Part shown: piece by piece, positions 4,152 through 53,063 of the stretch
Position numbering within the stretch: position 1 is the first letter of the stretch
Layout: each line of letters begins with the position of its first letter
Source: an uncultured virus (IMG/VR IMGVR_UViG_3300017613_001373)
Lineage: Duplodnaviria > Heunggongvirae > Uroviricota > Caudoviricetes
Strand: one strand, 5' to 3'
Virus record (IMG/VR): IMGVR_UViG_3300017613_001373
Length of the DNA stretch: 54,273 nucleotides
Notes under the pieces: generated by a model
What the model was told of the DNA's origin: nothing
The model's database searches: none
The model's input: the letters and a program-made list of their open reading frames with translations, nothing else
Program-made: the position numbers and the translations under genes

Positions 4152-4231
4152 TAAAGTACAATAGTACTATTGCAATAACCGATAATATATGGGATACTAT
4201 AAAAGTATTGAAAACTGATAGGAGAGACAAA

Positions 4232-34036: not shown

Positions 34037-34396
34037 ATGCAAACTGAAAAATTAGACCGCCGTAAGAATTCATTATTTGTATATGGTGTTGGTCGGGTAG
34101 ACTGGAATAGTACATATCAAGTTTTTAATAAAAGTGTGAACTACGATCAAATCAGTGTTGAAGAAATTGAAAAACATGGTTTCACATATCACGCAACAGA
34201 ACAAGACTGGTTTAATCTACTGATTGGTAAAGAAGTCATGGTACGAAGTTGGCAAAACACACATCGCGGGATTTTACAAAGTGATCGTGATGGTGTGTAT
34301 TATATCAACAATGCAGATGGGTTTATTGAATTTTCATTTAGTGATGTGACAGAATCAGAGTTTGGACGGATGACGCATATTATTAATTTAATTTAA
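34037..34396 (+). CDS. Hypothetical protein
   Basis: AGGAG RBS. Confidence 0.7.
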   Translation: MQTEKLDRRKNSLFVYGVGRVDWNSTYQVFNKSVNYDQISVEEIEKHGFTYHATEQDWFNLLIGKEVMVRSWQNTHRGILQSDRDGVYYINNADGFIEFSFSDVTESEFGRMTHIINLI

Positions 34397-34406
34397 AAGG
34401 GGTAAA

Positions 34407-34697
34407 ATGAAATCAGAACGGTACTATATTGAAACGGTAATGGATATTATTGACCAATTATCAGCAAGCGATTTACATGATAAAATTCAAGAAAACCCTC
34501 TTGATAATTCGTTATTTAACACAATTTTCTTTTATCCAATGTCGGTAGCAAATGCAATATTGATTTTAGCAGAGTTGGGAATCAATGAACACACACCAAA
34601 GAATTATAAAACAGTGAACGGCGACTATTTTTCAGGTATTATTTCCCGTAATCTGTATATGGAACAGTCTTACGAATTCCCATTGAGTGAGGTATAA
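34407..34697 (+). CDS. Hypothetical protein
   Basis: AGGGG RBS. Confidence 0.65.
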   Translation: MKSERYYIETVMDIIDQLSASDLHDKIQENPLDNSLFNTIFFYPMSVANAILILAELGINEHTPKNYKTVNGDYFSGIISRNLYMEQSYEFPLSEV

Positions 34698-34699
34698 AT

Positions 34700-35017
34700 A
34701 TGAGTATTAAAAAACTGATTATTGAGACATACGAACAAAATCATAATGATGTGGATGTTGTTCTGATTATAATGGAAAAATTGAATGATCAATGGGAACG
34801 GAAAGGGAGTTCTTCACGGGTAATTTGTTTTCGTGGTATGTATGATGTTGTTTTTGGACAGATGACAGAATATCAAACAAGAGAAGCATTTAGAAACCTT
34901 TTTCAACATGATAATGAGACAACAATCGAACATGTCATTGAACGGATGATTATCGCAATGATCCAGCATCCAGAAGAACGCAATAAATCAACTGTGAGTA
35001 CGTTTTTAGGCTCATAG
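34700..35017 (+). CDS. Hypothetical protein
   Basis: GAGGT RBS. Confidence 0.65.
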   Translation: MSIKKLIIETYEQNHNDVDVVLIIMEKLNDQWERKGSSSRVICFRGMYDVVFGQMTEYQTREAFRNLFQHDNETTIEHVIERMIIAMIQHPEERNKSTVSTFLGS

Positions 35018-35188
35018 AAGCGTTTTAAGGCAATATAGGCACAATCTATCACAATGACTTTTTAAGTGGCTTACAGAGCGATTTAAGAAGTCATTGTTGT
35101 TTTAGGACTATTGTACTATTGTAAAGTTGTGAAAAATTGTTATAGTTATATTTATTGAGCGAGATAACTATGACAATGAGGGAATAAA

Positions 35189-35392
35189 ATGACACAAGAA
35201 CAAGTAAATGCAGTACAATCCATGATTTATGCAATTGATGGTACATTACAGGGCGTGAACATGTCCGACGTGCAGTATGACAAAGATGGTACGCCAGTAG
35301 GAGCGATTGACAATCTGTACGCCTTTGATGCTGTGGAGTTAATGGATGCACTTATTGAAGCGAAATTTGTTTTTGGGAATAGTGTTAAATGA
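35189..35392 (+). CDS. Hypothetical protein
   Basis: GAGGG RBS; class A promoter. Confidence 0.65.
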   Translation: MTQEQVNAVQSMIYAIDGTLQGVNMSDVQYDKDGTPVGAIDNLYAFDAVELMDALIEAKFVFGNSVK

Positions 35393-35615
35393 TGAGTGGC
35401 ATCATTTTCAGGGTGTGAACGAGGGTGATTGTCGTGTTGTTTTTGGTGAGTTGAATGGTGATTCATTTGAAACCGCATTATGTTCAGATTGTTTGGGCAA
35501 AGTCGAATCATTGTTGTTCTAAACAGTACAAAAGTACCATCCAAACATCCTTGACAACTAAAAAATATCAGTTATTATTGTAATTATTGAAACGAAACGA
35601 ACAACAGAGGAAACA

Positions 35616-35999
35616 ATGTCAAGAATCAAAGTAAAACATGTGGTCTTATATCAATCAGAAGCATTTAATGGCGAGGTAGTGAAGAAAACTATTTCAGACG
35701 GTGATCGTGTAGTAAAAAGCCGTGTTTTTGCTAGAGATATGGGATTTGCTAAAACAAAAATGCGAATTGTGTTTGACGATGGTGAAGTGGTTGAGACATC
35801 AAGCAACTATAACGAATCGGTGGGCGAGTTTGGCGAATCTGTAAGCAATACTATCAGTATGTATCATAGATTAGTGAAAACTAACAAAATGCCGAAATGG
35901 TATGCTATTTATGGTGAAAATGCCGCTGAAAAATGGTCAGATTTTCGTAATGAATATTTGGATTTTATTGAAAAATATGATTATGGTTTGGGTTTTTAG
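35616..35999 (+). CDS. Hypothetical protein
   Basis: GAGGA RBS; class A promoter. Confidence 0.7.
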   Translation: MSRIKVKHVVLYQSEAFNGEVVKKTISDGDRVVKSRVFARDMGFAKTKMRIVFDDGEVVETSSNYNESVGEFGESVSNTISMYHRLVKTNKMPKWYAIYGENAAEKWSDFRNEYLDFIEKYDYGLGF

Positions 36000-36087
36000 G
36001 ACTATTGTACCATTGCAGGATTACAAAGTTTTGATAAGATTATGATTATTGAAACAGGGCAGATAATTAAGAGAGAGGAGAAATACT

Positions 36088-36402
36088 ATGTCAAATCAAC
36101 CCAAAACAGTATATGTTGTTCGTAGAACTAGTAAAACACTGGCGGTATCCATTGATGAAGCTACGATCACCCGAACCACACCCAAGCGTATTTATTTTGA
36201 AGATGTGATCACTTTATATGGTCGCCGTGATCTATATGCTGATTATGTGAGTAAGGATGAAAAAGGTGTATTTACAGATCGTAAGAAAGCATTAGAGTGG
36301 GGACAGGAACTCGCCCAAAAAAGTTACGATTATTTCAAATACATGGCTGAACAGCGTGGTAATGAAGAATTAGCGATGAAAATGTTAGGGATGTCAAGCT
36401 AG
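36088..36402 (+). CDS. Hypothetical protein
   Basis: AGGAG RBS; class A promoter. Confidence 0.7.
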   Translation: MSNQPKTVYVVRRTSKTLAVSIDEATITRTTPKRIYFEDVITLYGRRDLYADYVSKDEKGVFTDRKKALEWGQELAQKSYDYFKYMAEQRGNEELAMKMLGMSS

Positions 36403-36486
36403 TACTATTATCCTATTTACAAGAAGTGAGATATATGACATAATTCTTTCATCAAACGAAACGAATTAACGAAACGGGGCAATAAA

Positions 36487-36687
36487 ATGAAATTCAAAAC
36501 CATGGAACAACTTTCAAATCTGTCATACGTTCAATTATGGAATCGTCAAACTAAGTTATCAGAATGGGTAACAAAAGCGGGTGGGGGAAAATATCGTGGT
36601 AAAACCGCTGAGGATTTTATGAAACAGCATGATGTAATCACCCAAGTCATTAACGAAAAGACCGCTAGTATTTTCAATCGTTATTAA
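36487..36687 (+). CDS. Hypothetical basic protein
   Basis: GGGG RBS; class A promoter. Confidence 0.65.
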   Translation: MKFKTMEQLSNLSYVQLWNRQTKLSEWVTKAGGGKYRGKTAEDFMKQHDVITQVINEKTASIFNRY

Positions 36688-36860
36688 ATCAGCTAAAGTA
36701 GGGAAGAATTATAACAGAAGAGGTGAGGAGAAAACCCAAATGTATACCGTAACGAATTTGAATATTTTGGATATTAAACGTCAATATGCGAATTGGTTAT
36801 TTGAGACGGAAGGTATTGTTATTGGTATACCTGCATAGTTGACAGGAGATAAAAAAAAAA

Positions 36861-37130
36861 ATGAGAAATGACCGTGATAACGTACAAATTTTAGTGAAAT
36901 GTGGATTGGAAAAATTGAAAAGTATTAAATCCGATTTTCCACAAATGTATGAATGGTTAGCAGAGGAAGAATATTTTCCTCATACATTGGTTGAACTGAA
37001 CATTATGGAAATCGAAGTAAATGAGGCTATTGACCGCATTAACTTTGCAGACCAATATTTAGATGATCCGTTGGACATTGATGAACCAGTACTATCGTAC
37101 TATTGGCTAGTCTCTGATTATATGCAATAA
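36861..37130 (+). CDS. Hypothetical protein
   Basis: AGGAG upstream. Confidence 0.6.
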   Translation: MRNDRDNVQILVKCGLEKLKSIKSDFPQMYEWLAEEEYFPHTLVELNIMEIEVNEAIDRINFADQYLDDPLDIDEPVLSYYWLVSDYMQ

Positions 37131-37172
37131 TTATATTAACTTAAAGCAAACGGATTATTAGAGAGGGTTCAA

Positions 37173-37475
37173 ATGATACAATTAATTTTCGGAAGCGATG
37201 AAGCGAAAGTGCTATTACATCAAGATAGCTTAGAACAGGAAACACGGGAGACAAAAGCGCAGATCGAAGAATTGGAGCATGTTGTTCCTCAATCATTCGA
37301 TACCGCTGTTGAATTATCAGATTGGTTGTTTGATCATAGTAAGGCAGAACCAGAAGATGTGTTCAAGTTGATCCGACAATTGGCATCAAACTATACAGGT
37401 GAATATTATGGTGATGATGATGAAATCGGTAAAATTGGAAATGCTATTATGGCGGCAACAAAGGGTTATAACTAA
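37173..37475 (+). CDS. Hypothetical acidic protein
   Basis: GAGGG RBS. Confidence 0.7.
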   Translation: MIQLIFGSDEAKVLLHQDSLEQETRETKAQIEELEHVVPQSFDTAVELSDWLFDHSKAEPEDVFKLIRQLASNYTGEYYGDDDEIGKIGNAIMAATKGYN

Positions 37476-37699
37476 TGAGAAAAAAGAAATTATATTCAGT
37501 GGCGTTGGTCGCAGAACTAACCAATGGTCAAACAATTACTAATACAACGGCGGTTTGGGGTTACGAAGACCATGATGCAAGATTAGCGGCATTTCATCAA
37601 TGTCAATTGAAATTTCTGGGAGTTGGTTATAGTAATCATCAAGTCACCTTGACGAAAATTGATTTGACATCACTTAATTTGGATGAATTTGAAACATGA
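37475..37699 (+). CDS. Hypothetical protein
   Basis: TAATG overlap. Confidence 0.65.
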   Translation: MRKKKLYSVALVAELTNGQTITNTTAVWGYEDHDARLAAFHQCQLKFLGVGYSNHQVTLTKIDLTSLNLDEFET

Positions 37700-37845
37700 G
37701 AGGTTATCATTGGACGAACTCGCTTTAATGATTTTAGAATTGTTAGACAGGTAAAAAACAGTACAATGGTACTATGGACAAATAATAAAGTCTATAGTAT
37801 CATTTTTGTATTGAAGTCAAGTAAGTAAATGAGGAGAAAACCCAA

Positions 37846-38127
37846 ATGTATACCGTAACATTGCAAGAAGATGATAGATGGTACAGTGGCGGTCAATATG
37901 ACAATACATCAATTGATACCTATGCTAATCGTGTTTACAATATTGTAATCAACGAGAAACGATACGGACTTATCACAATTGAAAAAAACATCCAATTGAA
38001 AGAATTTTCCATTGTGGTTTTATTCTTACCTATGCACAAAGAATTTCGCATGACAACAACAGGTAGTTGGAAAACTGTAATGGAACAGGTTGTTGATTTT
38101 ACCAAGACATCTTGGGAGCAAGTGTAA
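37846..38127 (+). CDS. Hypothetical protein
   Basis: GAGGAG RBS; class A promoter. Confidence 0.7.
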   Translation: MYTVTLQEDDRWYSGGQYDNTSIDTYANRVYNIVINEKRYGLITIEKNIQLKEFSIVVLFLPMHKEFRMTTTGSWKTVMEQVVDFTKTSWEQV

Positions 38128-38249
38128 ACTAGCTTACACTTTGCCTTGACAAGTGAGAAATACCTGCTAAGATTGATTCTATTGACGAACAACTGAACGG
38201 AGAGAATTATGAACGGTTTTAGATTTAATGTTAATTAAGAGGTAACACT

Positions 38250-38546
38250 ATGAAAACAATTTACTGGAATGATGATATAGGATGTTCAGATAATCAAGCT
38301 GAAATGATTGCAGGGTTATTATTGAACCGTGAAAGTATTACAACTGGTAATTTGTCGGTTGTGGATCACGCTCGATTATTACGAGTTACAAACAAAATTG
38401 ATAGTTTAGTCATTAAATTTAATGGTCAAGATATTCCTGTTAATGAATACGGCGCAATTATGGATTGGCCTAGTGATTTTGCCGTCGATGATACACCTGT
38501 GAATATTTTACGAGCGGCAATGAATAAACGAAAAAGTGTAAAGTAG
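38250..38546 (+). CDS. Hypothetical protein
   Basis: GAGGT RBS; stop lies within a class B operator. Confidence 0.7.
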   Translation: MKTIYWNDDIGCSDNQAEMIAGLLLNRESITTGNLSVVDHARLLRVTNKIDSLVIKFNGQDIPVNEYGAIMDWPSDFAVDDTPVNILRAAMNKRKSVK

Positions 38547-38640
38547 TTTACACTTAGGGTTGACAACCATGAAAGAGTGTTTATAATATATATCAAGTCA
38601 AGACAATAGAGTTTGACAAGAAAAACAGTAGAGGTTGAAA

Positions 38641-38856
38641 ATGTTACAATTATATCCAAGCATTGACAAATCATATCACATTGAGGTTGAAAATATTGAT
38701 GATAAAACCGTTCAACGATCTGATTATGGTTCTTATGGTCATGTTGTAATCAAACAGTTTCCTGCCGTTTTGAAAGAATTGAGAGGGAAAAATCATACAA
38801 ATGTGGTGATCAAATTGTATAGTAAGAATGATGTATTAGAAACCGTATCATTTTAA
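38641..38856 (+). CDS. Hypothetical protein
   Basis: GAGGT RBS before ATG 38641. Confidence 0.65.
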   Translation: MLQLYPSIDKSYHIEVENIDDKTVQRSDYGSYGHVVIKQFPAVLKELRGKNHTNVVIKLYSKNDVLETVSF

Positions 38857-38871
38857 GATAACGAGGATATT

Positions 38872-39291
38872 ATGGAAAACACACTTGAAATTTGGGAAGA
38901 AAAATTAGAGGATATGGGATATACCGATCCAACAATTCGTTACAGTGGGTTTTATTCGCAAGGTGATGGTGCAAGTTTTACAACCGAATGGATCGATCTT
39001 GAAAAATGGTTGAAATATCATAAATTAGGGCATCAATTCAAGTCTGTCATGTACTGGTCAAAACAAGATATGACAGATTGTGAAATCTGGCGTTCTGAGT
39101 CACATTATGCACATGAAAATACTGTCTCTATTCAAGGTGAAATGTGTTATGGATATAATCAAAAAGGTTTTGAAAAACTTGACGCAGAAATGGACAAGTT
39201 GAAGCCTATTATTTTGAAAAAAGCACAAGAAACGATGCAAGTGATTTATAGCGATCTTGAGGCTGTGTATGAAAGAGAATGCGAAGAATAG
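38872..39291 (+). CDS. Phage hypothetical protein (YSGFYSQGDGASF motif)
   Basis: IRYSGFYSQGDGASF...HYAHENT motif; GAGGA RBS. Confidence 0.75.
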   Translation: MENTLEIWEEKLEDMGYTDPTIRYSGFYSQGDGASFTTEWIDLEKWLKYHKLGHQFKSVMYWSKQDMTDCEIWRSESHYAHENTVSIQGEMCYGYNQKGFEKLDAEMDKLKPIILKKAQETMQVIYSDLEAVYERECEE

Positions 39292-39392
39292 TACCATCGT
39301 ACCATTGACCAAAGATGTTTAATAATGCTATACTATATCTATTGAACACGAAAACAATAGTGACAAAAAAATAATAAAAGGAGATATAACAA

Positions 39393-39692
39393 ATGTTTAA
39401 GAAATCAGCATATGAAGGTGGCAGTCATTTGACACAACGAATCTGGACAAGTTATGATCAAATGGTCAAAGCATTGGGTCAACCTACAAACGGAATGTGT
39501 GATGGATATAAGGTAGATGTGACATGGGAATTGGAAAATGAGGATGGCGATATTTTGATGATTTGGAATTTTAAAAATGGTCCAAATTATCAAGGTTGTG
39601 GTACATTAGAGGACATTGATCATTTTTCATGCTATTATTTAAATCCAGTTGTTTACGAACAATTAGAAACACTTATTGCGGAAAATCAGTAA
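39393..39692 (+). CDS. Hypothetical phage protein
   Basis: SYDQMVKALGQP...DGYKVDVTW...IWNFKN; AAGGAG RBS. Confidence 0.75.
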   Translation: MFKKSAYEGGSHLTQRIWTSYDQMVKALGQPTNGMCDGYKVDVTWELENEDGDILMIWNFKNGPNYQGCGTLEDIDHFSCYYLNPVVYEQLETLIAENQ

Positions 39693-39735
39693 ACTAGTAC
39701 CATTGTAAAAAATTACAAAAACAGGGGAATAAAAT

Positions 39736-39990
39736 ATGCCAAAAGATATACAGGTTTTAGAATGTCCAAAATGTCTCGGTAGTGTAACATTACCATTACA
39801 TTTAGCGAATAGCAACAAATTATTTGGGGAAAGCGTTGCAATAGAATGTGAATATTGTAGTGTTACATCCATGTATCCCATGCCTATACATGGAAAAAAA
39901 GCAACTCTTATTGTACAACCCAGAGCGGTACATGTTGGTGGAAATGTTCGTGGTTCAATTATCACTGGGTCTAACAATATTTATCGTTAA
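39736..39990 (+). CDS. Zinc-ribbon protein with a C-terminal amyloid-signalling-like motif (architecture shared with 4232-4690)
   Basis: LECPKC...IECEYC then RAVHVGGNVRGSIITGSNNIY; AGGGG RBS. Confidence 0.7.
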   Translation: MPKDIQVLECPKCLGSVTLPLHLANSNKLFGESVAIECEYCSVTSMYPMPIHGKKATLIVQPRAVHVGGNVRGSIITGSNNIYR

Positions 39991-40354
39991 CGGGTTGTAA
40001 TGACGTGTTGAAATACTCCCTATAAGCCACTTAACACGGTTTTATGGGGTTTTGTACATAAACGTGAGGAAAACAGCACATGAAGCGATTTAAGACCATT
40101 AGAGACATTATTGATTATTACAAAGCTATGACAGATGAACGCTTAATTGCTAATTATTTTGAACATACGCTAACCATGTGGAATCCTATCAATAAGGTGA
40201 CAGACGAATATTTACTAGATGAAGAAAATTATTGGGTTTTAACAGAGTAGGACTAAAGTACTAAAGAATTGATCTTGACAACTGGCGAAATTCTGCTAAG
40301 ATTATATTTATTGAAGCAAGATACTATTGAACGAAAAAAAAAGGAAGGTTGAAC

Positions 40355-40693
40355 ATGGGATATTGTACAGATTACACATTGCAATATAAGGAATACGATC
40401 ACAATCCATATCGGGCAAATATTTATTCGCAATTGCACAGTGCTTTTCGGAAATTGGAATCAGGATATGAACTTCAACAACTAGTCGAGTATGGCGAATT
40501 GATTGATGTGAAATGGTATGATCATGTAGAACATATGAAGATTATTAGTGGTCAGTTCCCAAAAGTTCTGTTCACACTAAGTAAAATGGGTCAAGATGGT
40601 GAACAATCACGGGTATATTTTGAAAACGGTAAGGCACACGCAGTAGAATCAATTGTGACATTCCCACCGTTTGATAGAGCTAAATTGAAATAA
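40355..40693 (+). CDS. Phage hypothetical protein
   Basis: MGYCTDYTL...KWYDH..HM..IS.QFP..LF.L; GGAAGG RBS. Confidence 0.75.
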   Translation: MGYCTDYTLQYKEYDHNPYRANIYSQLHSAFRKLESGYELQQLVEYGELIDVKWYDHVEHMKIISGQFPKVLFTLSKMGQDGEQSRVYFENGKAHAVESIVTFPPFDRAKLK

Positions 40694-40872
40694 TTAGTAC
40701 AAAAGTACTATGATAATACTCTTGACAAGTAAAAACAGATAGGGTATTATCATAGTCATAGAGAGATAGAATTAAAAAGAAAGCAATACCGCGCCTACAT
40801 TTTCCGAGCAAATTAGCTTGACCGCTGATATTGTACGAAAATGAGATTAAGTGGGAACAAGAATTAACTTGT

Positions 40873-41036
40873 GGGGGTGTAGCTCAATTGGCAGAGCATC
40901 ACCATGAATATTTCCTTATTATAATCGGAGTGACTACCAATTATTATAAGGACATTCAATCTAGTCAATTGGATGTTAGGGGATTGCCCTAGATATGGAT
41001 TAGTGAAGGTTGTTGGTTCGAGTCCTTCCATCCCCA
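40873..41036 (+). ncRNA. tRNA-like RNA with a 100-nt structured insert in place of the anticodon loop
   Basis: Acceptor GGGGGTG/CATCCCC+A; D-arm GCTC-AATTGGCA-GAGC; TCAC/GTGA stem; T-arm GTTGG-TTCGAGT-CCTTC. Confidence 0.75.
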
Positions 41037-41443
41037 GCACTTAACGTAGATTAGAAATAATTGAACAACGAGGCGACTTTGCAAAAAACCTAACCCAACT
41101 AGGAATCATGTATTCTTAACTGTCCAAAGTCAGTCAAAATGGGGATGGGGAATAAACAATCGAACACGAGTGACAGAGCGTATGCCGCACTTCTCAATCA
41201 GGATGTTCAGGGGATGAGCGTAACCCCTATTAGTACTAATGTACCATTGTCTAATAAAAAGAGTGATGATATACTATTTTTATTGAACGGGACAATAAAA
41301 ACTCAGTGATAGAGTTTTTAACAGAATTTTATCACTGGGCTTTTATTCACTAAAGAAGTTGTGGCGGCGATTCGAGCGCAACTTGACCTAAAAAAGCATG
41401 ACGGTAAGGGACACTCAGCCAAGACGCTAAACGGTTTGGATAG

Positions 41444-41518
41444 TCAGATATAGTTCAATTGGCAGAACATGGTGGGTACGTCCTATCAAGGTTGTTGGTT
41501 CAAATCCTTCTATCTGAT
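41444..41518 (+). ncRNA. Non-canonical tRNA-like RNA (7-bp anticodon stem, 5-nt loop TACGT)
   Basis: Acceptor TCAGATA/TATCTGA+T; D-arm GTTC-AATTGGCA-GAAC; TGGTGGG-TACGT-CCTATCA; T-arm GTTGG-TTCAAAT-CCTTC; CCA not encoded. Confidence 0.75.
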
Positions 41519-41542
41519 AAGTAAAGCTATTAAATCGAATCT

Positions 41543-41579
41543 GGTAGGTATGTTGGAAAGCATACCTACCTATATTTTT
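41543..41579 (+). terminator. Intrinsic terminator after the second tRNA-like RNA
   Basis: GGTAGGTATG-TTGGAAAG-CATACCTACC-TATATTTTT. Confidence 0.7.
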
Positions 41580-41599
41580 ATCTTAAATGGGGTTGTAAA

Positions 41600-41815
41600 A
41601 TGTTCAAAGATATACCAACACAAGCGGCATGGGACAAGATGGATCAAATTATTGCTACAAATCCTGTGCATAATCTGATTAAAAAAGAATGGGGTTATAT
41701 CATTGATTGGAATGATGGTATTTATGGTATTGTTCAGTTTTTCATGTATTATGATGCTGAAACAAGTGAAGTAAAATCAGCGGTATTAAACACTCGTAAC
41801 CGCTGGAAGGTGTGA
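41600..41815 (+). CDS. Hypothetical protein
   Basis: GGGG RBS. Confidence 0.6.
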   Translation: MFKDIPTQAAWDKMDQIIATNPVHNLIKKEWGYIIDWNDGIYGIVQFFMYYDAETSEVKSAVLNTRNRWKV

Positions 41816-41863
41816 TAATATGTTGAACGACGAGAATAAACTAGATAACGAGCAAATAAAATA

Positions 41864-42346
41864 ATGAAGAAAATAGGTTTTGGACGTTTTTCAGACATTT
41901 ATCACAATGGCGATCATGTTATCGCTATTGTAATTGAACAAGATTATACAAAACAGGCACTATCTCAAGTGGTCAAGATGCCCCATGTGCCAGATGTTTC
42001 AAAACTAGCTGAAAACAAATTCAAAATGCCTCTATATCGCTCTCTAAGCGACGCAAACAAGCCAATGGTAGATTTTCTCATAACATCATGGCAAAACTTC
42101 GCTAACCGCAACCCAGTACCATTAGACGGCAACCCTGTAAATTTTTACAATCGTGTTATTGAATATTTGCAATATATCAAGAATATCATAGATGTGAGTT
42201 TATATAACGCTCTTGAGATAATTGTCGAAACCATGAAAAACTTTACAATGAAAATCAATATGGATTTTCATCTGGACAATTTTATGGAAGATGATGATGG
42301 CGATATTATTTTACTGGATGTGATATGGTCGCCAAGTGTAAAGTAG
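41864..42346 (+). CDS. Minimal protein-kinase-like protein
   Basis: Gly loop IGFGRFSDIY, PHVP, KMPLY hinge, catalytic loop MDFHLDNFM, IILLD. Confidence 0.7.
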   Translation: MKKIGFGRFSDIYHNGDHVIAIVIEQDYTKQALSQVVKMPHVPDVSKLAENKFKMPLYRSLSDANKPMVDFLITSWQNFANRNPVPLDGNPVNFYNRVIEYLQYIKNIIDVSLYNALEIIVETMKNFTMKINMDFHLDNFMEDDDGDIILLDVIWSPSVK

Positions 42347-42427
42347 TTTACACTTGGTCTTGACAGGTAAAAAATACCTGTTATTATTAATTCTATTGAC
42401 CGACAATTAACGACAACAAAAGAGGAT

Positions 42428-42757
42428 ATGAAAATGGCTAAAGTATACAGCACACCAAAAGGTTATGATGCACCAGAATTTGACATACACACATACAAAC
42501 AGGATGGTGACAAATACCTTGAAACCTTATCTGGATTTTGCAAAGAGCATAGTAAGTGTAAACATGCTGGCGAAGTAATTCGTTATCCTTGTGGGGATGG
42601 ATATGCCGAATATATGGTATATACATATACCATGTTGATCCATATTGAACTTGGTGATGCTTGGAATTTACCAGATGCACACATACGCGGATTGCGTAAG
42701 GCTGATATTATCAAAAAAATTGAATCTCAAAAGAGAATGGTGGAATTATTTAGTTAA
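42428..42757 (+). CDS. Phage hypothetical protein
   Basis: GEVIRYP.GDGYAEYMV...LIHI..GDAW; GAGGA RBS; class B promoter. Confidence 0.75.
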   Translation: MKMAKVYSTPKGYDAPEFDIHTYKQDGDKYLETLSGFCKEHSKCKHAGEVIRYPCGDGYAEYMVYTYTMLIHIELGDAWNLPDAHIRGLRKADIIKKIESQKRMVELFS

Positions 42758-42861
42758 TCATGTCAAAGTGTAAACTATTTTACACTTTAACTTGACAGGT
42801 AAAAAATACCTGTTATCATTGATTTTATTGAAGTCAAGTACTAGCGAGAGGATAGAACATA

Positions 42862-43125
42862 ATGAGATATGCAATTCAAATCCGCAACATGCACACAGGA
42901 ATACATGAACTTTTTATAGCGGAAGATAAAGAAACCGCTAAAGAATTAAATGAATTGTTTAAAATTCTTGCTGATACTGTTGATGATGATTTTATGTGGG
43001 GACAGATTAATATTCTTGAGTATGATCATGTTGAAATCAATTTTCGCCATGTTGTTAACCAAACGTATCAATATTGGGATGAAACAATAGAGATCTTAAA
43101 TGATCATAAATATGATATTTACTAG
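42862..43125 (+). CDS. Hypothetical protein
   Basis: GAGGA RBS; class B promoter. Confidence 0.7.
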   Translation: MRYAIQIRNMHTGIHELFIAEDKETAKELNELFKILADTVDDDFMWGQINILEYDHVEINFRHVVNQTYQYWDETIEILNDHKYDIY

Positions 43126-43134
43126 GGGGATGGT

Positions 43135-43425
43135 ATGAATAAGCATAATTATATCAAAATATATTTGACAAATCGAAATAATGCTGATAGTTTGGCTATT
43201 TTAGAAGAAATGAAGAAATTAGCTCAAACAGATGACGATTTTGCACAGCGGTTTAATGGATGGTTAGATAGCGAATTATCAACCATTGTTTTGAGGGAAT
43301 TGGTTGAAACTGTGACAGGTAAACGTTATTTTTTCAGTCTGGATCATCAAAATAATGTCGATTCTTTAGATAGTGCTAGTTATTCGTATAAATGCTCGTC
43401 TTATTATTCACCAACTGTTAAATAG
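43135..43425 (+). CDS. Hypothetical protein
   Basis: GGGGG RBS. Confidence 0.65.
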   Translation: MNKHNYIKIYLTNRNNADSLAILEEMKKLAQTDDDFAQRFNGWLDSELSTIVLRELVETVTGKRYFFSLDHQNNVDSLDSASYSYKCSSYYSPTVK

Positions 43426-43510
43426 TTTACACTTACTATTGACAACGAAAAAAAGTGATGATAAGATTATAAACATATTGAGCAAGTTAAACGAATGAGG
43501 GAAATAAAAA

Positions 43511-43876
43511 ATGGATACGGAAGAATTTGAAATGGGACAAGATTTAGCTGATGAATTTGGTCTTGATAATCATATTAACAACTCAGATGAAGATGAATTA
43601 CAGTTGATTATTGATGCTGATTATGATGATATTAATTTGTCATATGTTAACACCCTGTTAAGCGACGCAGGAATTAGCGATCTGTATACGGCTATCGAAT
43701 TGGTACGAGATAGATCAGCCATGACAAAAGAATCATTGTTAGATGTATGGTTAGAACAGATGGATGTTGATCAATCCATTGTTATCTATCTTGATATGGA
43801 TCATGTTTGGAATGATGTTTTTGTCCATAGTGGATTGTGTGAAATGGACGACGGCACATATTTTAATGTACCATAG
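43511..43876 (+). CDS. Very acidic protein with an ArdA-like C-terminus (candidate DNA mimic / antirestriction)
   Basis: D/E-rich with almost no K/R; IYLDMDHVWNDVF..G..E..DGTYF resembles the ArdA C-terminal motif. Confidence 0.55.
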   Translation: MDTEEFEMGQDLADEFGLDNHINNSDEDELQLIIDADYDDINLSYVNTLLSDAGISDLYTAIELVRDRSAMTKESLLDVWLEQMDVDQSIVIYLDMDHVWNDVFVHSGLCEMDDGTYFNVP

Positions 43877-43971
43877 TTGAAAAATACGCCCTGTGAGACG
43901 TTTTAATCGTCTCATGGGGTATTTATACAGAAAACCGTATCAAACCGCTTAGACGGCGAATTTGGAGCATT

Positions 43972-44349
43972 ATGTACGAACCTGATAAAATCCTCTGTGA
44001 GCAATTAATTGATTATTTTTACAACGGTAATTTTCGATTATCAGAAAATGAAAGTGTGGTGATTTTCAAAAATGTTTCACGTTTTCGATTGTGTCCTCAT
44101 TTTGCAAAAACAAATCTTGTTGCATTGGTAGATGTTGCAACAGATAAAGAAGTGAGAGGCGAAGGAATTGGATCAAGTATGCTTGAGGCAATTTGTGAGT
44201 TTTTAGATCATGCAAAATTAAAATGCTTAGTGCATCCTGAATCATACGGAGAGAATAAAAACCAGCGGAAATTAAGAGCATGGTACAAACAACATGGTTT
44301 TAAGCCTGTAACGGGTCAATCTACAATGATTCGTCAGCCACAAGTGTAA
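43972..44349 (+). CDS. GNAT family acetyltransferase
   Basis: VRGEGIGSSML (R-G-x-G acetyl-CoA motif), LRAWYKQHGF. Confidence 0.85.
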   Translation: MYEPDKILCEQLIDYFYNGNFRLSENESVVIFKNVSRFRLCPHFAKTNLVALVDVATDKEVRGEGIGSSMLEAICEFLDHAKLKCLVHPESYGENKNQRKLRAWYKQHGFKPVTGQSTMIRQPQV

Positions 44350-44437
44350 AGTAGTTTACACTTATCCTTGACAGGTAAAAAATATCTGTTATCATTATAT
44401 TTATTGAACGACATAAACAAAAAACAATGAGGTATTC

Positions 44438-44779
44438 ATGAAACAAACAATAAAAGTTAATGGTATCAATGTTTTAGTAAAGACACATCCTAATTGTCCA
44501 ATTATTATGAATATTGGACATAATACACATTATCGAAAAATGCGATACCTTGCTATTGGGGATGATAAAAGCCTAGCATATTGCGAAGGTCAAGGGTATC
44601 ATGTTGTCAGTGACAAAGAGTTTATAGAAACATATGTCGAACATTTGGATTATCCCATTAGTGACATCAAAGCAGATTTTTATGATTTTACCAGTGATGA
44701 TCGCCATAAACCGTTATACGTCCATATGCTTGACGCATATGAATTATTAATAGAGCGTTTTGAAATGTTGTCAATTTAG
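44438..44779 (+). CDS. Hypothetical protein
   Basis: GAGGT RBS; class B promoter. Confidence 0.7.
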   Translation: MKQTIKVNGINVLVKTHPNCPIIMNIGHNTHYRKMRYLAIGDDKSLAYCEGQGYHVVSDKEFIETYVEHLDYPISDIKADFYDFTSDDRHKPLYVHMLDAYELLIERFEMLSI

Positions 44780-44867
44780 GTGAAACAAATGATTATGATC
44801 CATCTTTTATTGGATGGTCATTTTATAAAGAATCATAATGAGGGTAAAATAGGGAGCAATCAGAATC

Positions 44868-45167
44868 ATGACTACAATTGATGTTTTCAAAACCGATGTG
44901 ATTTTTGAAGTCGGCGTGACAAGTAAGGATAGTTTTTGTATTGAAGACAGTAATTTATCGCCCAAAACAATTGAAAAAATTCATCAAATTGTTCGCCTTA
45001 CACAATTCTCAAATGATCCTAATTATGAAGTTGTAAAAAATGCTTGCCCTTTTTTACAGGGTTATAATATTGGTTCTGGATGGATACAGGTTGAATTTTG
45101 GACAATGGATGGTGACGCTATTCAACTATTTATTGATTTTGTAAACGAGGAAATATCAAAACTGTAA
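44868..45167 (+). CDS. Hypothetical protein
   Basis: GGGAG upstream; stop lies in the next operator. Confidence 0.7.
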   Translation: MTTIDVFKTDVIFEVGVTSKDSFCIEDSNLSPKTIEKIHQIVRLTQFSNDPNYEVVKNACPFLQGYNIGSGWIQVEFWTMDGDAIQLFIDFVNEEISKL

Positions 45168-45256
45168 ACTACTTTACACTTTAACTTGACAGGTAAAAAA
45201 TATCTGTTATCATTGATTTTATTGAAGCCAATCAGTAATAACAAGAGGATAGGATA

Positions 45257-45484
45257 ATGATTGAGAAATTTCAAATTAAACAGGTTCACATATCAGAAGT
45301 GCGAATGAATGATACAGTTTTACACAATGGTGATCGACGAACCGTTGGTAAAAACGATATTAATCATGGCGGTTTTATGGGGTCTTCATTATTTGGGGAT
45401 TCGTACCGACTGGGTACAAAACTTGTTAGTTTGGTAATGTTTCCACATTTTTCCAAAGGGAAACAAATTGGATGGAGACGGTAA
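45257..45484 (+). CDS. Hypothetical phage protein
   Basis: VHISEVR..DTVLHNG..RTV...FMG.SLFGDSY; AGGA RBS. Confidence 0.7.
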   Translation: MIEKFQIKQVHISEVRMNDTVLHNGDRRTVGKNDINHGGFMGSSLFGDSYRLGTKLVSLVMFPHFSKGKQIGWRR

Positions 45485-45571
45485 GTGTAAAGTTGTTTAC
45501 ACTTGCTATTGTAATTTTTTACAATCGTGTTTATAATATACTCATTGAATACGAAACAGGATGGAGAAACA

Positions 45572-45811
45572 ATGGATATTATTAAATTAAAAATCGCTCA
45601 AGGTGTTTGTACTGGCGAATATAGTGGTAGTATCAATAATCGTACACCTACTATTTTTAAAGCAATACAACATGATGGACATGTTTTTTATGGATGGCAT
45701 TATGTAGAAATTGGTTGTAAATTAGGACGTACATTTATGACAAAATCCCATGAGTTTATGGGCAAAGATTTTTCTGAATACTCATATATTTGGCAATACC
45801 AACAATTCTAA
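45572..45811 (+). CDS. Hypothetical protein
   Basis: GGAG RBS before ATG 45572. Confidence 0.65.
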   Translation: MDIIKLKIAQGVCTGEYSGSINNRTPTIFKAIQHDGHVFYGWHYVEIGCKLGRTFMTKSHEFMGKDFSEYSYIWQYQQF

Positions 45812-45881
45812 AATATCAATTTCAAAATTGCTCTTGACAACTGATAAAAACCATGCTAGAATTTTTATCAGTTAAGCAATT

Positions 45882-46151
45882 ATGAAATTTACGGAGAATA
45901 ACATGGCAATTCCAACAGCTTTAGAAATTCAAGAAAATATCGCACACAATACGGGTGAAATCCCTCAATTAATTTCCGATCCGTCAACATGGCCGATCAT
46001 GCAACGGGGTATGGAAATATGGGAGCAACAAATTATTGATACAAATGCCATTTTCCAAGTGGCACAGGAGAAATTAACTCCTACAATGACAAAAACAACT
46101 CCGCGTCAAGCGATGGTGCAAGAAGTAACAATATCAGCAAAAGTTTTATGA
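45882..46151 (+). CDS. Hypothetical protein (start may be 45903)
   Basis: TTGACA-N17-TAGAAT promoter; CGGAG before 45903. Confidence 0.6.
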   Translation: MKFTENNMAIPTALEIQENIAHNTGEIPQLISDPSTWPIMQRGMEIWEQQIIDTNAIFQVAQEKLTPTMTKTTPRQAMVQEVTISAKVL

Positions 46152-46164
46152 AGGGATTAAAATA

Positions 46165-46362
46165 ATGGCGAAACGAAAACGTAAGCAAAAAACAGTACCT
46201 TTCCGTACCATTCAAGAAAAAGTTTGGTCAATGAATGATTTTGAACGTATGTGTATTTTACACGATTTTGAAATTGTCTATGAGTTGTACGACAATCTGA
46301 GCAACAAAATCTTAGATAATCTGAATACACAGATGCGTAAAGCAATCATGAATACTGTGTAA
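46165..46362 (+). CDS. Hypothetical protein
   Basis: AAGGGA RBS. Confidence 0.6.
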   Translation: MAKRKRKQKTVPFRTIQEKVWSMNDFERMCILHDFEIVYELYDNLSNKILDNLNTQMRKAIMNTV

Positions 46363-46448
46363 AATCCGCTCTAAGCGTTTTATAACCAGTCAAGCTATGG
46401 ATTATCATATATTGATTATAAAACGCTTAGAGAGCGAATATAGGGGGA

Positions 46449-46664
46449 ATGATGGATAATAATTTATATTCACAGCATGATTTTTCACCGTTCACATTCA
46501 CGGATGATAATGATAATGTGCAAACATTGACAAGTAATGATTTGCCCAAACGTTTTAGACCATGTGATCTTGTTATATTATTTCAAAATCGTTTCGATGT
46601 ATCAAGAGAGACGGCACGACAATTGAAAATTAATTTTCTGGAGCATATCTATAAAAAAGTGTAA
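46449..46664 (+). CDS. Hypothetical protein
   Basis: GGGGG RBS; stop lies in the next operator. Confidence 0.65.
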   Translation: MMDNNLYSQHDFSPFTFTDDNDNVQTLTSNDLPKRFRPCDLVILFQNRFDVSRETARQLKINFLEHIYKKV

Positions 46665-46749
46665 AGTAGTTTACACTTGGTATTGACAACGATTAAAATT
46701 CTGCTAAGATTAATTTTATTGAACGGCAACTAAAACGAGGATATAAAAA

Positions 46750-47181
46750 ATGTCAATTGAAATCACATTCACAATAAAAAACGAAACCATTATCAAAAGA
46801 TGGGATCGTGACAATACCAATTCACGAACATATACAAAGCTAACAGCGTCAAGCTCAAAACGCTTGGGAAATTTCATTGCAGAAAATAAATATGATGACA
46901 ATGGTGTTTTTGGACATTACCATACATATAAATGTATCATTGAACCAATTGCAAGAAAACATTATTTTATGCTTAATCAGGAGTATCAAAAAGGTACAAT
47001 GGTCGGGCGAATTTGGGAAATCAATGAAGACATTTATTGGGATGCGTTAGAATCTTTGTCACCATTAAAATATGTGAAAAACGGTTTTCTCATGCGCGAA
47101 TTCATGATTGGGAATATTACAACAAAGTTCACAAACGTAAATGGGCAATATTATTGTGAATTTGTCGAATTTGGTCAGTAA
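46750..47181 (+). CDS. Protein with a DUF1419-like C-terminal domain
   Basis: WEI.ED.Y...LE.L.PL.....F.M.EF.....T..F....G.YY. Confidence 0.6.
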   Translation: MSIEITFTIKNETIIKRWDRDNTNSRTYTKLTASSSKRLGNFIAENKYDDNGVFGHYHTYKCIIEPIARKHYFMLNQEYQKGTMVGRIWEINEDIYWDALESLSPLKYVKNGFLMREFMIGNITTKFTNVNGQYYCEFVEFGQ

Positions 47182-47295
47182 CTGTAAACAGCTTTACACC
47201 TAAAGTGTAAAATAGTTTACAGACAGAATCGAAAAAAAGGTTTATACTCTATTTAAGTCAAGGCAACAAGCTAAGACAAAATGAGGATAAACCTT

Positions 47296-47661
47296 ATGTC
47301 ACTCCCAAGTAATTTTGTAAATAAGGCAACAAGATTAGCATTATACAAAAACGCAGATTTTCATTGCGTATACTGCGATGAACCAATTGAAAGGGATATA
47401 CGGCAATTATCGCTTGACCATCTTCACGCCAGATCGAAAAATGGCGAAAAAAGTAATCCAAAAAATCTTGTTTGCTCATGTAATGATTGCAATGTAAAAA
47501 AGGGAAATAAAACCGTCTCCCAATTTGCAAGATTGATCGGGCTTCACCCCAAAAAACTCAAAAGCAGAATTAATAAAATCACTAAAAAACCGCTTGATAC
47601 AAAATCAGCGAATAGCGCAATTAGAAAACATGGTTATTTGACTGCAATAGCGATTTTCTAA
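47296..47661 (+). CDS. HNH endonuclease
   Basis: CVYC...SLDHL..RSKNG.....NLVCSCNDCN.KKG; GAGGA RBS. Confidence 0.85.
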   Translation: MSLPSNFVNKATRLALYKNADFHCVYCDEPIERDIRQLSLDHLHARSKNGEKSNPKNLVCSCNDCNVKKGNKTVSQFARLIGLHPKKLKSRINKITKKPLDTKSANSAIRKHGYLTAIAIF

Positions 47662-47766
47662 TAAGTGTAAACTATTTTACACTTTAGCTTGACAACAAAA
47701 AAATATCTGTTATCATTGATTTTATTGAACAACAAACAGCGACAATAAGAATAGAGAGGTAAGATT

Positions 47767-48624
47767 ATGGACATAATAATAGACTATGAACAGTTAAAAA
47801 AACGATGCCAACAACCTGAGAATGAATTAATTGGCAATAAAAAATATCGTTTTTTTGACAATGGTGGTGACGTGCTTGCAGTTGCTCATGTCGATGTTGC
47901 TCCGTCTATAACAAAATATCGAACAATGTTTTATCAAGCTGAGAATGTGACATATTCACCATCATTAGATGATAGATTAGGTGTTTATATTTTGATGGAT
48001 TTATTGCCAAAATTAGGATTGACTTTTGATCTCTTGTTGACAACGGATGAGGAAATAGGTCAATCAACTGCACAACTTTTTAAAACTAAAAAAGATTATA
48101 AATGGATGTTCCAATTTGATCGTTCTGGAGTTGATGTTGTGATGTATGAATATGATACCCCTGCTAATCGTCGTTTATTAAATCAGGTAGGGTTGATAAC
48201 AGGGATTGGCTCATTTTCAGATATTTGTTTCCTAGACTTTTTAGGGTGTACAGGTTTCAATTTTGGTACAGGATACTATAATGAGCATACCCTTCAATGT
48301 CATATGGTGGAAGATGACACGATAAAGATGATAAAAGGATTTATTCTATTTTTTAATCAAAATAGCGATATTTTCTTAGACTATAATCCTGTTGAATATG
48401 AGCAAATCGCATACACTTATGGTAAACAATCCCCATACTTAACTCCAGTGCATGAAGAAACGTATGATCCGTTGGATAATGTTTTAGAATATGATGATTT
48501 AGGCAATATCCTAACCAATCCCGACGAATTATGTGAATATTGTAATCAAGCATATTCCGATCTATATATTGCCGACTTAGACTGTACATTGTGTGATAAT
48601 TGCATGGTATTTTTAGGATTGTGA
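47767..48624 (+). CDS. Zn-dependent exopeptidase-fold hydrolase (M28/M42-like) with C-terminal zinc finger
   Basis: AHVD, SLDDRLG, TTDEEIG, QFDRSG, GYYNEHT; CEYC...CDNC. Confidence 0.8.
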   Translation: MDIIIDYEQLKKRCQQPENELIGNKKYRFFDNGGDVLAVAHVDVAPSITKYRTMFYQAENVTYSPSLDDRLGVYILMDLLPKLGLTFDLLLTTDEEIGQSTAQLFKTKKDYKWMFQFDRSGVDVVMYEYDTPANRRLLNQVGLITGIGSFSDICFLDFLGCTGFNFGTGYYNEHTLQCHMVEDDTIKMIKGFILFFNQNSDIFLDYNPVEYEQIAYTYGKQSPYLTPVHEETYDPLDNVLEYDDLGNILTNPDELCEYCNQAYSDLYIADLDCTLCDNCMVFLGL

Positions 48625-48736
48625 AAAATTACAAAACTGTAAAGTAGTTTACACTTATTCTTGACAAGTGTAAAATACCTGCTACACTTGTCAACATGTC
48701 GCCAATAAAGACGGCATTACAACGGAGAGAAAAATC

Positions 48737-49306
48737 ATGTTAGGTTACAAAACTGGGAAATATGACAGTAACGGTTATCAACACTTATACATTGAGCTAT
48801 ACACTATCGCAAAAGATGGTTACACGACGAGATTTGGTAATCTTTCATGGCAGGGTGATAATAGCAACGATCATTGGTATGGTTTCAAGTATGACAATCA
48901 ATCAAACCATTCAACAGCGTTTGAACAATTCATGAAATTTGGTAAAAAAGTTGTGGATGTATATGGCTTTTCACCATTAGAAATAGTGGAATGGTTGAAT
49001 AGTTTGCGTGGTATGAAGCGATTGATCTGGGATCAACGATTATCAGAATTAATCCCCGTTGATCAATATGTCGCAAGTGAAGGTAAATACGCCTATGAAG
49101 TTTACTGCAATAGTGTGTATGAGGATAAGATTTTAGCAATTGACGAACGAGACGCAAGGGGACAAATTTATAAAAAATGGTTGCGAGTATATCAGGAAGA
49201 TCGTGGATCAGGAAAAATTGAAGAATTTGTTGCAAATGGTCATTTAGTGATGGCTAGTGGGTATTACATCACACCACAAAGTTTCGATGATTTAATTGCA
49301 CGATAG
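48737..49306 (+). CDS. Hypothetical protein
   Basis: ACGGAGAG RBS; class B promoter. Confidence 0.75.
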   Translation: MLGYKTGKYDSNGYQHLYIELYTIAKDGYTTRFGNLSWQGDNSNDHWYGFKYDNQSNHSTAFEQFMKFGKKVVDVYGFSPLEIVEWLNSLRGMKRLIWDQRLSELIPVDQYVASEGKYAYEVYCNSVYEDKILAIDERDARGQIYKKWLRVYQEDRGSGKIEEFVANGHLVMASGYYITPQSFDDLIAR

Positions 49307-49502
49307 ATTAATCTAAAAACGCTTAAAATCGCCATTAGAACGGTTTTAAGCGTTTTTGGCTATCTATCCACATATCAAGCATCTACTCCCCACACAGCCC
49401 ATTTTAACCAATTTTCAAATTGCTCTTGACAGATGAAAAAATGTCTGATAAGATCATATTCAAGTCAAGCAGATAACGTGATTGAAAAAAAAAGGTGAAA
49501 TA

Positions 49503-49853
49503 ATGTCAAAAATTAACGCATATACTCCAGACTCCAGAAAAATCAAACAAAAATATATTGATACGGTATTAGGAAAGTTACAATCTCAAGGTTTGAGCTA
49601 TTCAAGCAAATGGTCTGAAATTGAAAAATGTTTAGATGAAACAGGGTTGCCAACTTTTTGCAAACGTGTAGCTTTACGCGCACGGCAAAATTTAATGATT
49701 GAAGACGTTGTGATCGTTAATGATGGTTACAATGGTGATACTGTTGAATGCTATGCTGATCCAATTGATGAAGATCAAACCTGTTATAAATTGCAGGTTA
49801 AAAATTCACACCTTACCAAATGGATTAGTAAAGAGGAATATAACCAACTGTAA
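49503..49853 (+). CDS. Hypothetical protein
   Basis: AAGGTG RBS before ATG 49503. Confidence 0.7.
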   Translation: MSKINAYTPDSRKIKQKYIDTVLGKLQSQGLSYSSKWSEIEKCLDETGLPTFCKRVALRARQNLMIEDVVIVNDGYNGDTVECYADPIDEDQTCYKLQVKNSHLTKWISKEEYNQL

Positions 49854-49962
49854 ACAACTTTACATCTAAAGTGTAAAATACTTTACAGTTAGAATCAAAA
49901 ACAGTGTTATACTTTTATCAGGTCGCCAACAAGAGCGATAACAATGAAAAAAAGGTGATGTG

Positions 49963-50166
49963 ATGAATAAATTTTATGTATCTTTATGGGGCGAACATGA
50001 CAATAGTGATGTTGAACTATCAGGAGATCATGTTTTCACGCATTATACAGAAATTGAACAATTATTAAAAGACAATCCCATGATCAGCGGTTTTGTGGTA
50101 ACTCATGCACTGGTTATAACATTCGATCATGGGGAAATAGATGTGGAGAAAATAGAAAATGGCTAA
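49963..50166 (+). CDS. Hypothetical acidic protein
   Basis: AAGGTG RBS. Confidence 0.65.
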   Translation: MNKFYVSLWGEHDNSDVELSGDHVFTHYTEIEQLLKDNPMISGFVVTHALVITFDHGEIDVEKIENG

Positions 50167-50389
50167 CGATACGTTTACTCAAAATTTGTTCGATTATGGC
50201 ACATTAGAATTATTTGCTAATACAGAATCAGATACGGCAATATTGCAAATTTCCAATGGTGCGTATGGTTTGCCTTTACGTGTAAGCGTTGATAAACAAA
50301 ACGCATTCTCAATTTATAATAATGCCTGTGTTAATACGCATGAGGAAATGAAAAAAATCATGATGGATAATAGGGTATATACCCCATAG
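50159..50389 (+). CDS. Hypothetical protein
   Basis: GGAG RBS; overlaps upstream gene. Confidence 0.65.
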   Translation: MANDTFTQNLFDYGTLELFANTESDTAILQISNGAYGLPLRVSVDKQNAFSIYNNACVNTHEEMKKIMMDNRVYTP

Positions 50390-50483
50390 TGTAAAGTAGT
50401 TTACACTTGGTATTGACAACGAAAAAATACCTGTTATCATTAATTTTATTGAACGGCAAACAGCGACAATAAAAGAGGATATA

Positions 50484-50792
50484 ATGAAATTCAAATTATC
50501 AATAAAGAAAAACAAAAATCGTGCAATCGCTGAAACAACTTCGCGTTATGATGTGTTATTAAACGGTAAAAAAGTAGGTGAATTGTATTATAACATGCGT
50601 GGTTATACAGGATGTTACCTGCCAACTCCAGACGGTAAAAAATTGGATTGTGGCGAACAATCTATCACACAATGGCGCAAAGATATGGCTCAATTAAACC
50701 GTGAAGCAAAAACAACTGAAACGATTATCTTACCAGTGATGAAAAAAGAAAAACCATATGTGAGTAAACACGTATGGTCAGATGTTTTTTGA
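50484..50792 (+). CDS. Hypothetical basic protein
   Basis: GAGGA RBS; class B promoter. Confidence 0.7.
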   Translation: MKFKLSIKKNKNRAIAETTSRYDVLLNGKKVGELYYNMRGYTGCYLPTPDGKKLDCGEQSITQWRKDMAQLNREAKTTETIILPVMKKEKPYVSKHVWSDVF

Positions 50793-50905
50793 AAAACAAA
50801 ACTGTAAAGTAGTTTACACCTAAACTGTAAACTACTTTACAGACAAGACTTAAAAACCTGTTATACTTCATTCAAGTCACAAGCAATTAAGAAACGGAGT
50901 TTAAA

Positions 50906-53043: not shown

Positions 53044-53063
53044 AAATTGTAAAAAATTACAAT

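Follow-up and report, generated by a model that had tools for sequence, protein, structure and literature searches.

We identified an 84-residue protein, P0001 (39736..39990, plus strand), in a 54,273-nt stretch of DNA from an uncultured virus (hereafter the window, meaning the whole stretch that was analysed), whose C-terminal tail, to judge by sequence comparison, is a motif of the published bacterial amyloid signalling family BASS6. The motif is present behind a zinc ribbon while effector and sensor domains are absent, and by analogy with known viral systems we consider it on balance probable that P0001 is an effector-less decoy that would co-assemble with host motifs and blunt amyloid-triggered cell death. 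Amyloid-motif mimicry in animal viruses and BASS motifs in bacteria are both already known; a phage-borne BASS6 mimic is the new combination, and no phage-encoded BASS mimic was found in the literature searched, which lay mostly outside subscription journals.

P0001 opens with a four-cysteine ribbon (residues 5-50, 39748..39885, plus strand; zinc binding is presumed from C10, C13, C38 and C41), with the pattern L8-x-C10xxC13 ... C38EYC41 ... Y47-P-M-P50. A 12-residue linker follows (residues 51-62, 39886..39921), ending in a Pro directly before the motif, and alignment to host motifs places this linker where the N-terminal part of the host motif would stand. The BASS6-type motif itself, RAVHVGGNVRGSIITGSNNIY (residues 63-83, 39922..39984), was delimited by profile, pattern and published data set, and is followed by one residue and the stop codon. 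P0001 looks like a credible gene, with a ribosome-binding site (AGGGGA, 39723..39728, plus strand, 7 nt before the ATG) and a codon adaptation of 0.69, compared with 0.69 +/- 0.04 for 34 long ORFs of the window and 0.62 for the overlapping antisense ORF. The tail follows phage codon usage (GC3 of 0.22; host motif loci average 60% GC), which suggests long retention. Upstream, promoter and box scans located an AGTAC-N4-GTACC box abutting a sigma-70-type promoter (39290..39334, plus strand), which probably drives P0001 together with a preceding 99-residue ORF lacking a PHROG match (39393..39692, plus strand), presumably as one transcript. A degenerate box with a -35-like hexamer and no clear -10 lies directly 5' of the ribosome-binding site (39688..39715, plus strand), and was not among the promoter-like sites of the window promoter scan. 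On the 3' side, a possible but weak terminator hairpin (40018..40049, plus strand) appears in the centroid structure only, and the 91-nt region containing it folds no better than shuffles (z of -0.27). A single-sequence AlphaFold model of P0001 reached a pLDDT of 37 and was set aside.

Counterparts of the tail were sought with a degenerate pattern modelled on it and matched exactly against 185,579 genomes, which yielded 55 matches where the calculated chance expectation is far less than 1; the pattern misses P0001 itself because it holds one extra residue between GS and two hydrophobic residues. On a profile of 52 host motifs the P0001 tail scores 27.4 bits, the runner-up among 269 window ORFs scores 2.4 bits, and none of 5000 tail shuffles reaches the P0001 score, although there is some circularity in this test, the host set having been retrieved by means of a pattern built from that same tail. 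At six upstream positions outside the fetch pattern, including a conserved Arg and Val, only 68 of 12,877 windows match or beat P0001 (top 0.5%). What the original prediction observed is confirmed, and its interpretation is supported in part: the tail is no chance low-complexity sequence, and proteins of host signalling do carry a counterpart of it, BASS6. The P0001 tail and the best host copies agree at as many as 15 of 21 positions, which exceeds the 43-56% identity of BASS pairs with experimental cross-seeding (bioRxiv 2020.01.06.895854). The assignment rests on a match by eye of the host motif to the published cluster C09, which the accompanying README equates with BASS6 (PMC8086366, supplementary file 1). 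A RHIM/BASS3 identity was considered and rejected: P0001 has no Pfam RHIM match at E up to 10, and its motif fits C09 and not C03, the BASS3 cluster (PMC8086366). Within the window, no other BASS6 carrier was found among 1186 six-frame segments, nor any effector, NLR or adjacent partner gene for P0001, so that the zinc ribbon alone accompanies the motif.

The core of the P0001 motif is one residue shorter than the commonest host form. This shorter spacing was absent from 301 Anaerolineae-class genomes, and is present in one published BASS6 member (PMC8086366 data) and in five cellular-looking metagenome contigs of 50-69% GC, three of which encode caspase-motif-ribbon proteins, one a truncated ORF with the motif at its start, and one a motif before a SMODS domain. 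The shorter spacing is a natural but minor form of the motif, and the natural host copies weaken the idea that it serves as a phage-specific 'register breaker'.

The bacterial carriers of the motif are concentrated in Chloroflexota, to which 41 of the 55 loci are titled, with the other 14 distributed among Acidobacteriota, Cyanobacteria, Alphaproteobacteria, one actinobacterium, one archaeon and one unassigned source. In these proteins the motif mostly lies a few residues from the C-terminus, near the N-terminus, or ahead of a small C-terminal domain. Small helical (Bell-like) proteins and caspases have it at their C-terminus, and the NLR-type NTPases next to them at their N-terminus. Immune-type domains are borne by 30 of 58 hand-picked carriers (NB-ARC/NACHT/AAA, TPR, WD40, caspase, CHAT, TIR, TCAD2, EAD10, trypsin, Roc-COR, and SMODS), other domains by 3, and none by 25. 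Most of the domain-less carriers (18 of 25) belong to one helical family of ~140 residues that closes with the motif; its predicted all-helical model and its N-terminal hydrophobic helix with Asp2 would fit the published description of Bell (bioRxiv 2020.01.06.895854), although fold searches of this ~140-residue protein gave no clear match. At least two motif-bearing ORFs occur in 19 of the 55 loci, and 20 of 27 C-terminal carriers have a downstream ORF in the locus, with a Walker A motif in 11 of these 20 and an N-terminal motif copy in 8. Adjacent effector/NLR gene pairs are the arrangement by which bacterial amyloid signalling sequences were defined (bioRxiv 2020.01.06.895854), and host BASS6 copies were found in such pairs. 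P0001 thus resembles published BASS6 proteins (Dyrka et al.; bioRxiv 2020.01.06.895854; PMC8086366) in pattern, length, and effector-side position near the C-terminus; it differs in its phage-like context, in having no adjacent NLR gene and no Bell, caspase or TIR effector, in its zinc ribbon, in its replaced motif N-terminus, and in a core shorter than that of the commonest Chloroflexota form.

Several of these loci have unusual architectures. Cellular-looking caspases at L058:272-1708, L059:274-1722 and L062:127-1401 carry a BASS6 motif of the phage spacing followed by a C-terminal CxxC...CxYC ribbon, so that motif and ribbon are joined in the order reverse to that of P0001. At L061:1-1185, a BASS6 motif of the phage spacing directly precedes a SMODS nucleotidyltransferase domain, an arrangement that may connect amyloid signalling with synthases of the CBASS type. 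The Chloroflexota caspases at L019:3446-4996, L042:3017-4534 and L017:3566-4981, two of which end in TCAD2, carry tandem motif types and can be described as multi-motif hubs.

A sibling of P0001 lies some 35 kb away in the same window. P0002 (4232..4690, plus strand; 152 residues) has the same ribbon class and N-terminal layout, as read off both translations and as the original prediction had noted, with a different and longer tail of 100 residues in which host-type motifs are arrayed (BASS2-like, GDKVGG-type, and GIAIG-type). Over 92 residues this tail matches a Caldilineaceae caspase (E of 3.8e-9 among 2459 ORFs) and over 50 residues a second caspase; with three shorter segments of the tail, two matches reach 14-16 bits and one only 8, compared with at most 9.7 bits for shuffles. 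Since the P0002 tail played no part in fetching the host loci, its caspase match is independent of the search pattern. In the Caldilineaceae caspase the matching stretch comes directly after the BASS6 copy, so that both motif sets stand in tandem. P0001 and P0002 thus draw on adjoining parts of a single motif array of the host. At the head of the matching stretch stands a motif similar to published BASS2 members and to an NLR-side peptide of Methanothrix that gave cross-beta spectra and bound Congo red (PMC8086366), and the GDKVGG-type motif is absent from the part of the BASS data set (PMC8086366) that was covered. The homologue search for P0002 returned one full-length relative, P0003 (115 residues, 44% identity including tail features), and ten tail-only matches, of which the two that are named are both Chloroflexota EAD-type proteins. 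Downstream of P0002, a very AT-rich stretch (4690-5030) is unlike the surrounding intergenic cassettes.

The original prediction supposed that a variable tail determines which host pathway is targeted. Two distinct cargoes do exist, but the tails need not address different pathways, because individual host caspases carry the motifs of both in tandem; from the sequences, the tails seem rather to complement each other in covering a single network. By extension, P0001 and P0002 may belong to a panel of decoys in which a zinc-ribbon carrier presents different host BASS motifs, thereby covering the Anaerolineae NLR/caspase array and blocking amyloid-triggered abortive infection, a reading that we put forward tentatively and rate a little short of even.

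The ribbons themselves are less informative about common descent. Those of P0001 and P0002 are 26% identical over 43 residues, and against a profile built from the other two motif-bearing ribbons that of P0001 reaches 21-23 bits, with none of 4999 cysteine-fixed shuffles reaching the leave-one-out score. However, ordinary bacterial ribbons score as well as the motif-bearing ones and pairwise scores tie with those of host ribbons, and thus the shuffle control does not establish a dedicated ribbon family. In a tree of 28 ribbons, the three motif-bearing ones formed a clade in 63% of bootstrap trees, with support of 59/75 and long branches. A three-member ribbon profile recovered no fourth ribbon-plus-motif protein among 1.84 billion representatives; apart from the 3 seeds, its 10 matches were 7 ribbons or repeats with no relation to them, leaving P0001, P0002 and P0003 as the only such proteins found. 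The idea of a modular family is supported as far as one ribbon class with two motif cargoes and a third protein with the cargo of P0002, and a single origin of these ribbons as a conserved family of their own is no more than possible. Against 401 Anaerolineae-class genomes, the profile found 21 ribbons at 14-33 bits, mostly on membrane proteins; these CxxC...CxYC ribbons share the cysteine spacing and flanking residues of P0001, but in none of the 21 loci does a motif of the BASS6 or sibling type score at least 8 bits. One host protein, P0012, does carry a ribbon ahead of a motif array. We also observed a conserved Anaerolineae family of ~123 residues (L129-L133, L135, L139-L141, L144, L146, L147, and L149), with two membrane helices and a C-terminal zinc ribbon ending in EEPKW, which often directly precedes a long secreted-protein gene.

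Relatives of P0001 are scarce. Records of the protein exist for 3 contigs, of which the largest spans 133 kb, while a word search retrieved only the protein itself and no homologue among longer proteins. No relative of P0001 or P0002 was found in IMG/VR, where pattern and profile scans gave chance, unrelated or unconfirmed matches, five distant helicase-sharing virus records gave no match, and the 50,697 phage records of INPHARED contained no homologue of P0001. Likewise, Pfam, NCBIfam, PHROGs, PDB sequences, and the ESM Atlas offered no family for it. Because the family is so small, it yields no conservation signal for selection on P0001.

The window has a GC content of 34.5%, dense small plus-strand ORFs and one tRNA, and PHROG matches among the 34 proteins scanned include a clamp loader, sliding clamp, RNA ligase, tRNA nucleotidyltransferase, helicase, and exonuclease. 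This gene content suggests that the window comes from the part of a large phage genome devoted to early functions and replication, the term phage being itself indirect because no virion gene was identified in the window. An AGTAC-N4-GTACT box occurs at 17 sites at up to one mismatch, compared with 0.92 expected (4155, 13659, 14181, 19694, 20571, 30023, 30544, 32872, 33683, 35104, 35525, 37088, 37760, 39290, 40249, 40696, and 41232), and lies at or near the -35 element of many promoters. The exact box with ATTG is found at 4155, 37088, 39290 and 41232; it therefore stands before P0002, where the box is perfect (4155..4172, plus strand), and before the probable P0001 transcript. The box with ATTG is present in 17 of 101 Anaerolineae-class genomes, ahead of varied genes in the same arrangement, and its reversed-pattern control in 2 of 101; the first 61 of those genomes had served to refine the pattern, and 9 of the 40 new ones match. 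In the three other phyla scanned it was found in 3 of 303 genomes (Cyanobacteria, 2 of 101; Acidobacteriota, 1 of 101; Actinomycetota, 0 of 101). A host transcription factor that has yet to be described, and that the phage exploits, probably binds the AGTAC box. The possibility that it is the Anaerolineae LexA site was rejected, as five lexA upstream regions carry GAAC-N4-GTTC-type boxes instead. The promoter box is a line of evidence independent of the motif matches; taken together, the two indicate Anaerolineae as the likely host, and the LexA-type boxes of the window point the same way. The class sampled is that of the Caldilineaceae genome with the matching caspase, which is Anaerolineae in GTDB.

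Precedents for a virus that copies a host amyloid signalling motif without its effector domain, as P0001 does, are MCMV M45 (bioRxiv 324590) and VZV ORF20 (PMC7375649). For M45, a herpesviral protein, a fragment of 90 residues with the RHIM prevents necroptosis by way of hetero-amyloid (bioRxiv 324590). P0001 differs from these RHIM decoys in belonging to a bacterial virus, in carrying BASS6 and not RHIM, and in being an 84-residue stand-alone protein; moreover, inhibition has been demonstrated for M45, whereas for P0001 it is deduced. In bacteria, amyloid signalling defends E. coli against T5 through Bab/Agp, a host-side system using a motif family (BASS11) other than that of P0001, in which infection turns the sensor motif to amyloid, which in turn templates the effector motif and leads to cell death (bioRxiv 2024.11.07.622273). 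Motif-swapped chimeras of the Bab/Agp type work in E. coli. That amyloid signalling is antiphage implies a selective pressure for a decoy; the accessible text of bioRxiv 2024.11.07.622273 describes no phage-encoded antagonist of Bab/Agp, and that of PMC12261475 mentions neither phage nor virus. In the accessible text of the experimental studies, fibril and prion tests covered BASS1, BASS3 and BASS11, not BASS6 (bioRxiv 2020.01.06.895854, bioRxiv 2024.11.07.622273).

We hypothesize that P0001 would be made early in an Anaerolineae cell from a host-type promoter, and that when an activated NLR nucleates a cross-beta assembly, P0001 would join it and dilute, cap or divert it, such that the effector stays off and the infected cell survives. 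The ribbon, which the original prediction took for a scaffold or cap, might serve as a small soluble carrier that prevents self-seeding by the motif, or it might block fibril growth, which is speculative, and P0002 may act likewise on further motifs of that network. The sequences show what the motif is, in which host contexts it occurs and that P0001 has the signals of a gene; the host, the timing, the formation of amyloid, its inhibition, and the role of the ribbon are the parts of this model that we infer. Points against the decoy model include the one-residue difference from the commonest host form, the replaced N-terminal part of the host motif, the tiny family with its missing conservation signal, and the lack of a CRISPR spacer between the phage segment and the host genomes searched. 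A predicted complex of the P0001 tail with three copies of the host motif pointed neither way.

The main argument against a decoy is that an effector-less motif can also trigger rather than block, because aggregated BASS11 fused to GFP activates the effector Bab (bioRxiv 2024.11.07.622273). P0001 could accordingly seed host effectors, for instance to kill or wall off filament neighbours, exclude competing phages or help lysis, and both the conversion of effector-side motifs by NLR-side motifs and an identity to host motifs high enough for cross-seeding are consistent with such activity. We nonetheless consider this unlikely: P0001 sits among small early-type genes with sigma-70 promoters, early death would abort infection, and the known RHIM mimics of DNA viruses inhibit. 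It is rather unlikely, too, that P0001 and P0002 are captured fragments of host genes persisting without function against the host. Ribbons and motifs both occur in Anaerolineae proteins, hosts fuse the two as well (the caspase-motif-ribbon order in 3 of 5 metagenome matches, and P0012), and only singletons are known. Yet two such genes stand 35 kb apart, both intact and both with translation signals and phage codon usage; motif residues were kept while the ribbons diverged to 26% identity; and P0002 and P0003 are 44% identical, tail features included. Improbable as well is the co-option of the motif for a phage polymer or scaffold that displays zinc ribbons and has no host amyloid target. Zinc ribbons commonly bind proteins or nucleic acid and BASS motifs assemble unaided when fused to other proteins, but self-assembly alone would call neither for a range of different host motif types nor for the host order that P0002 keeps. 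Least credible, very improbable and for the most part already refuted, is a Gly/Val/Asn-rich, beta-solenoid-like tail unrelated to BASS, since the shortness of the motif and a spacing one residue off the searched host form are outweighed by the 15/21 identity, the non-pattern positions, the effector-like C-terminal placement, the independent P0002 match, and the lack of any Pfam repeat family match to P0001.

The BASS paper left open what Bell/NLR pairs do biologically (bioRxiv 2020.01.06.895854). That a phage copies BASS6 and other motifs of its network suggests that such systems are directed against phages in filamentous Chloroflexota, and that bacterial viruses, like herpesviruses, have evolved amyloid mimicry for counter-defence. 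A panel of decoys, if real, would amount to phage counter-defence against amyloid signalling, a bacterial counterpart of viral RHIM mimicry, and would be indirect evidence that the BASS6 systems of filamentous bacteria fight phages. More generally, shared motifs and the shared promoter box could provide a means of assigning hosts to uncultured Chloroflexota phages.

Other features of the window bear on its regulation and host. A search of positions 34300-54273 against 401 genomes found no CRISPR spacer linking phage and host; short matches occurred in 6 of the 401, three of which, on inspection, were a regulatory palindrome, an rRNA promoter repeat and a tRNA, while the remaining three overlap the same tRNA-like stretch of the query. 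This stretch (40831-41040) has a tRNA-like 5' arm (from 40867) and a 3' arm (to about 41040) ~110 nt apart; ARAGORN made no tRNA call there, and it is possibly an intron-split or otherwise interrupted tRNA or a tmRNA-like gene. A GMP reductase or IMP dehydrogenase-like gene at 6056-6988 (PHROG 'dehydrogenase') is a possible auxiliary nucleotide-metabolism gene. Three perfect AGAACA-N2-TGTTCT boxes of LexA type (51437, 52168, and 52270) lie in an ORF-poor region near the helicase and resemble those ahead of five of five lexA genes from Anaerolineae-class genomes; boxes of this type are also used by Gram-positive phyla. Their sequence and position suggest SOS control. Finally, a second palindrome, TGTAAA-N4-TTTACA, occurs at 22 sites compared with 0.93 expected, of which 21 fall in 38123-52617 and one at 21105; it usually stands 8-10 nt ahead of TTGACA, and three times as a tandem pair. 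As an exact pattern it is absent from 61 other Anaerolineae-class genomes, and G140 has one intergenic copy with matching flanks (L079:1501-1532). Between them, the AGTAC and TGTAAA boxes split the window into two regulons.
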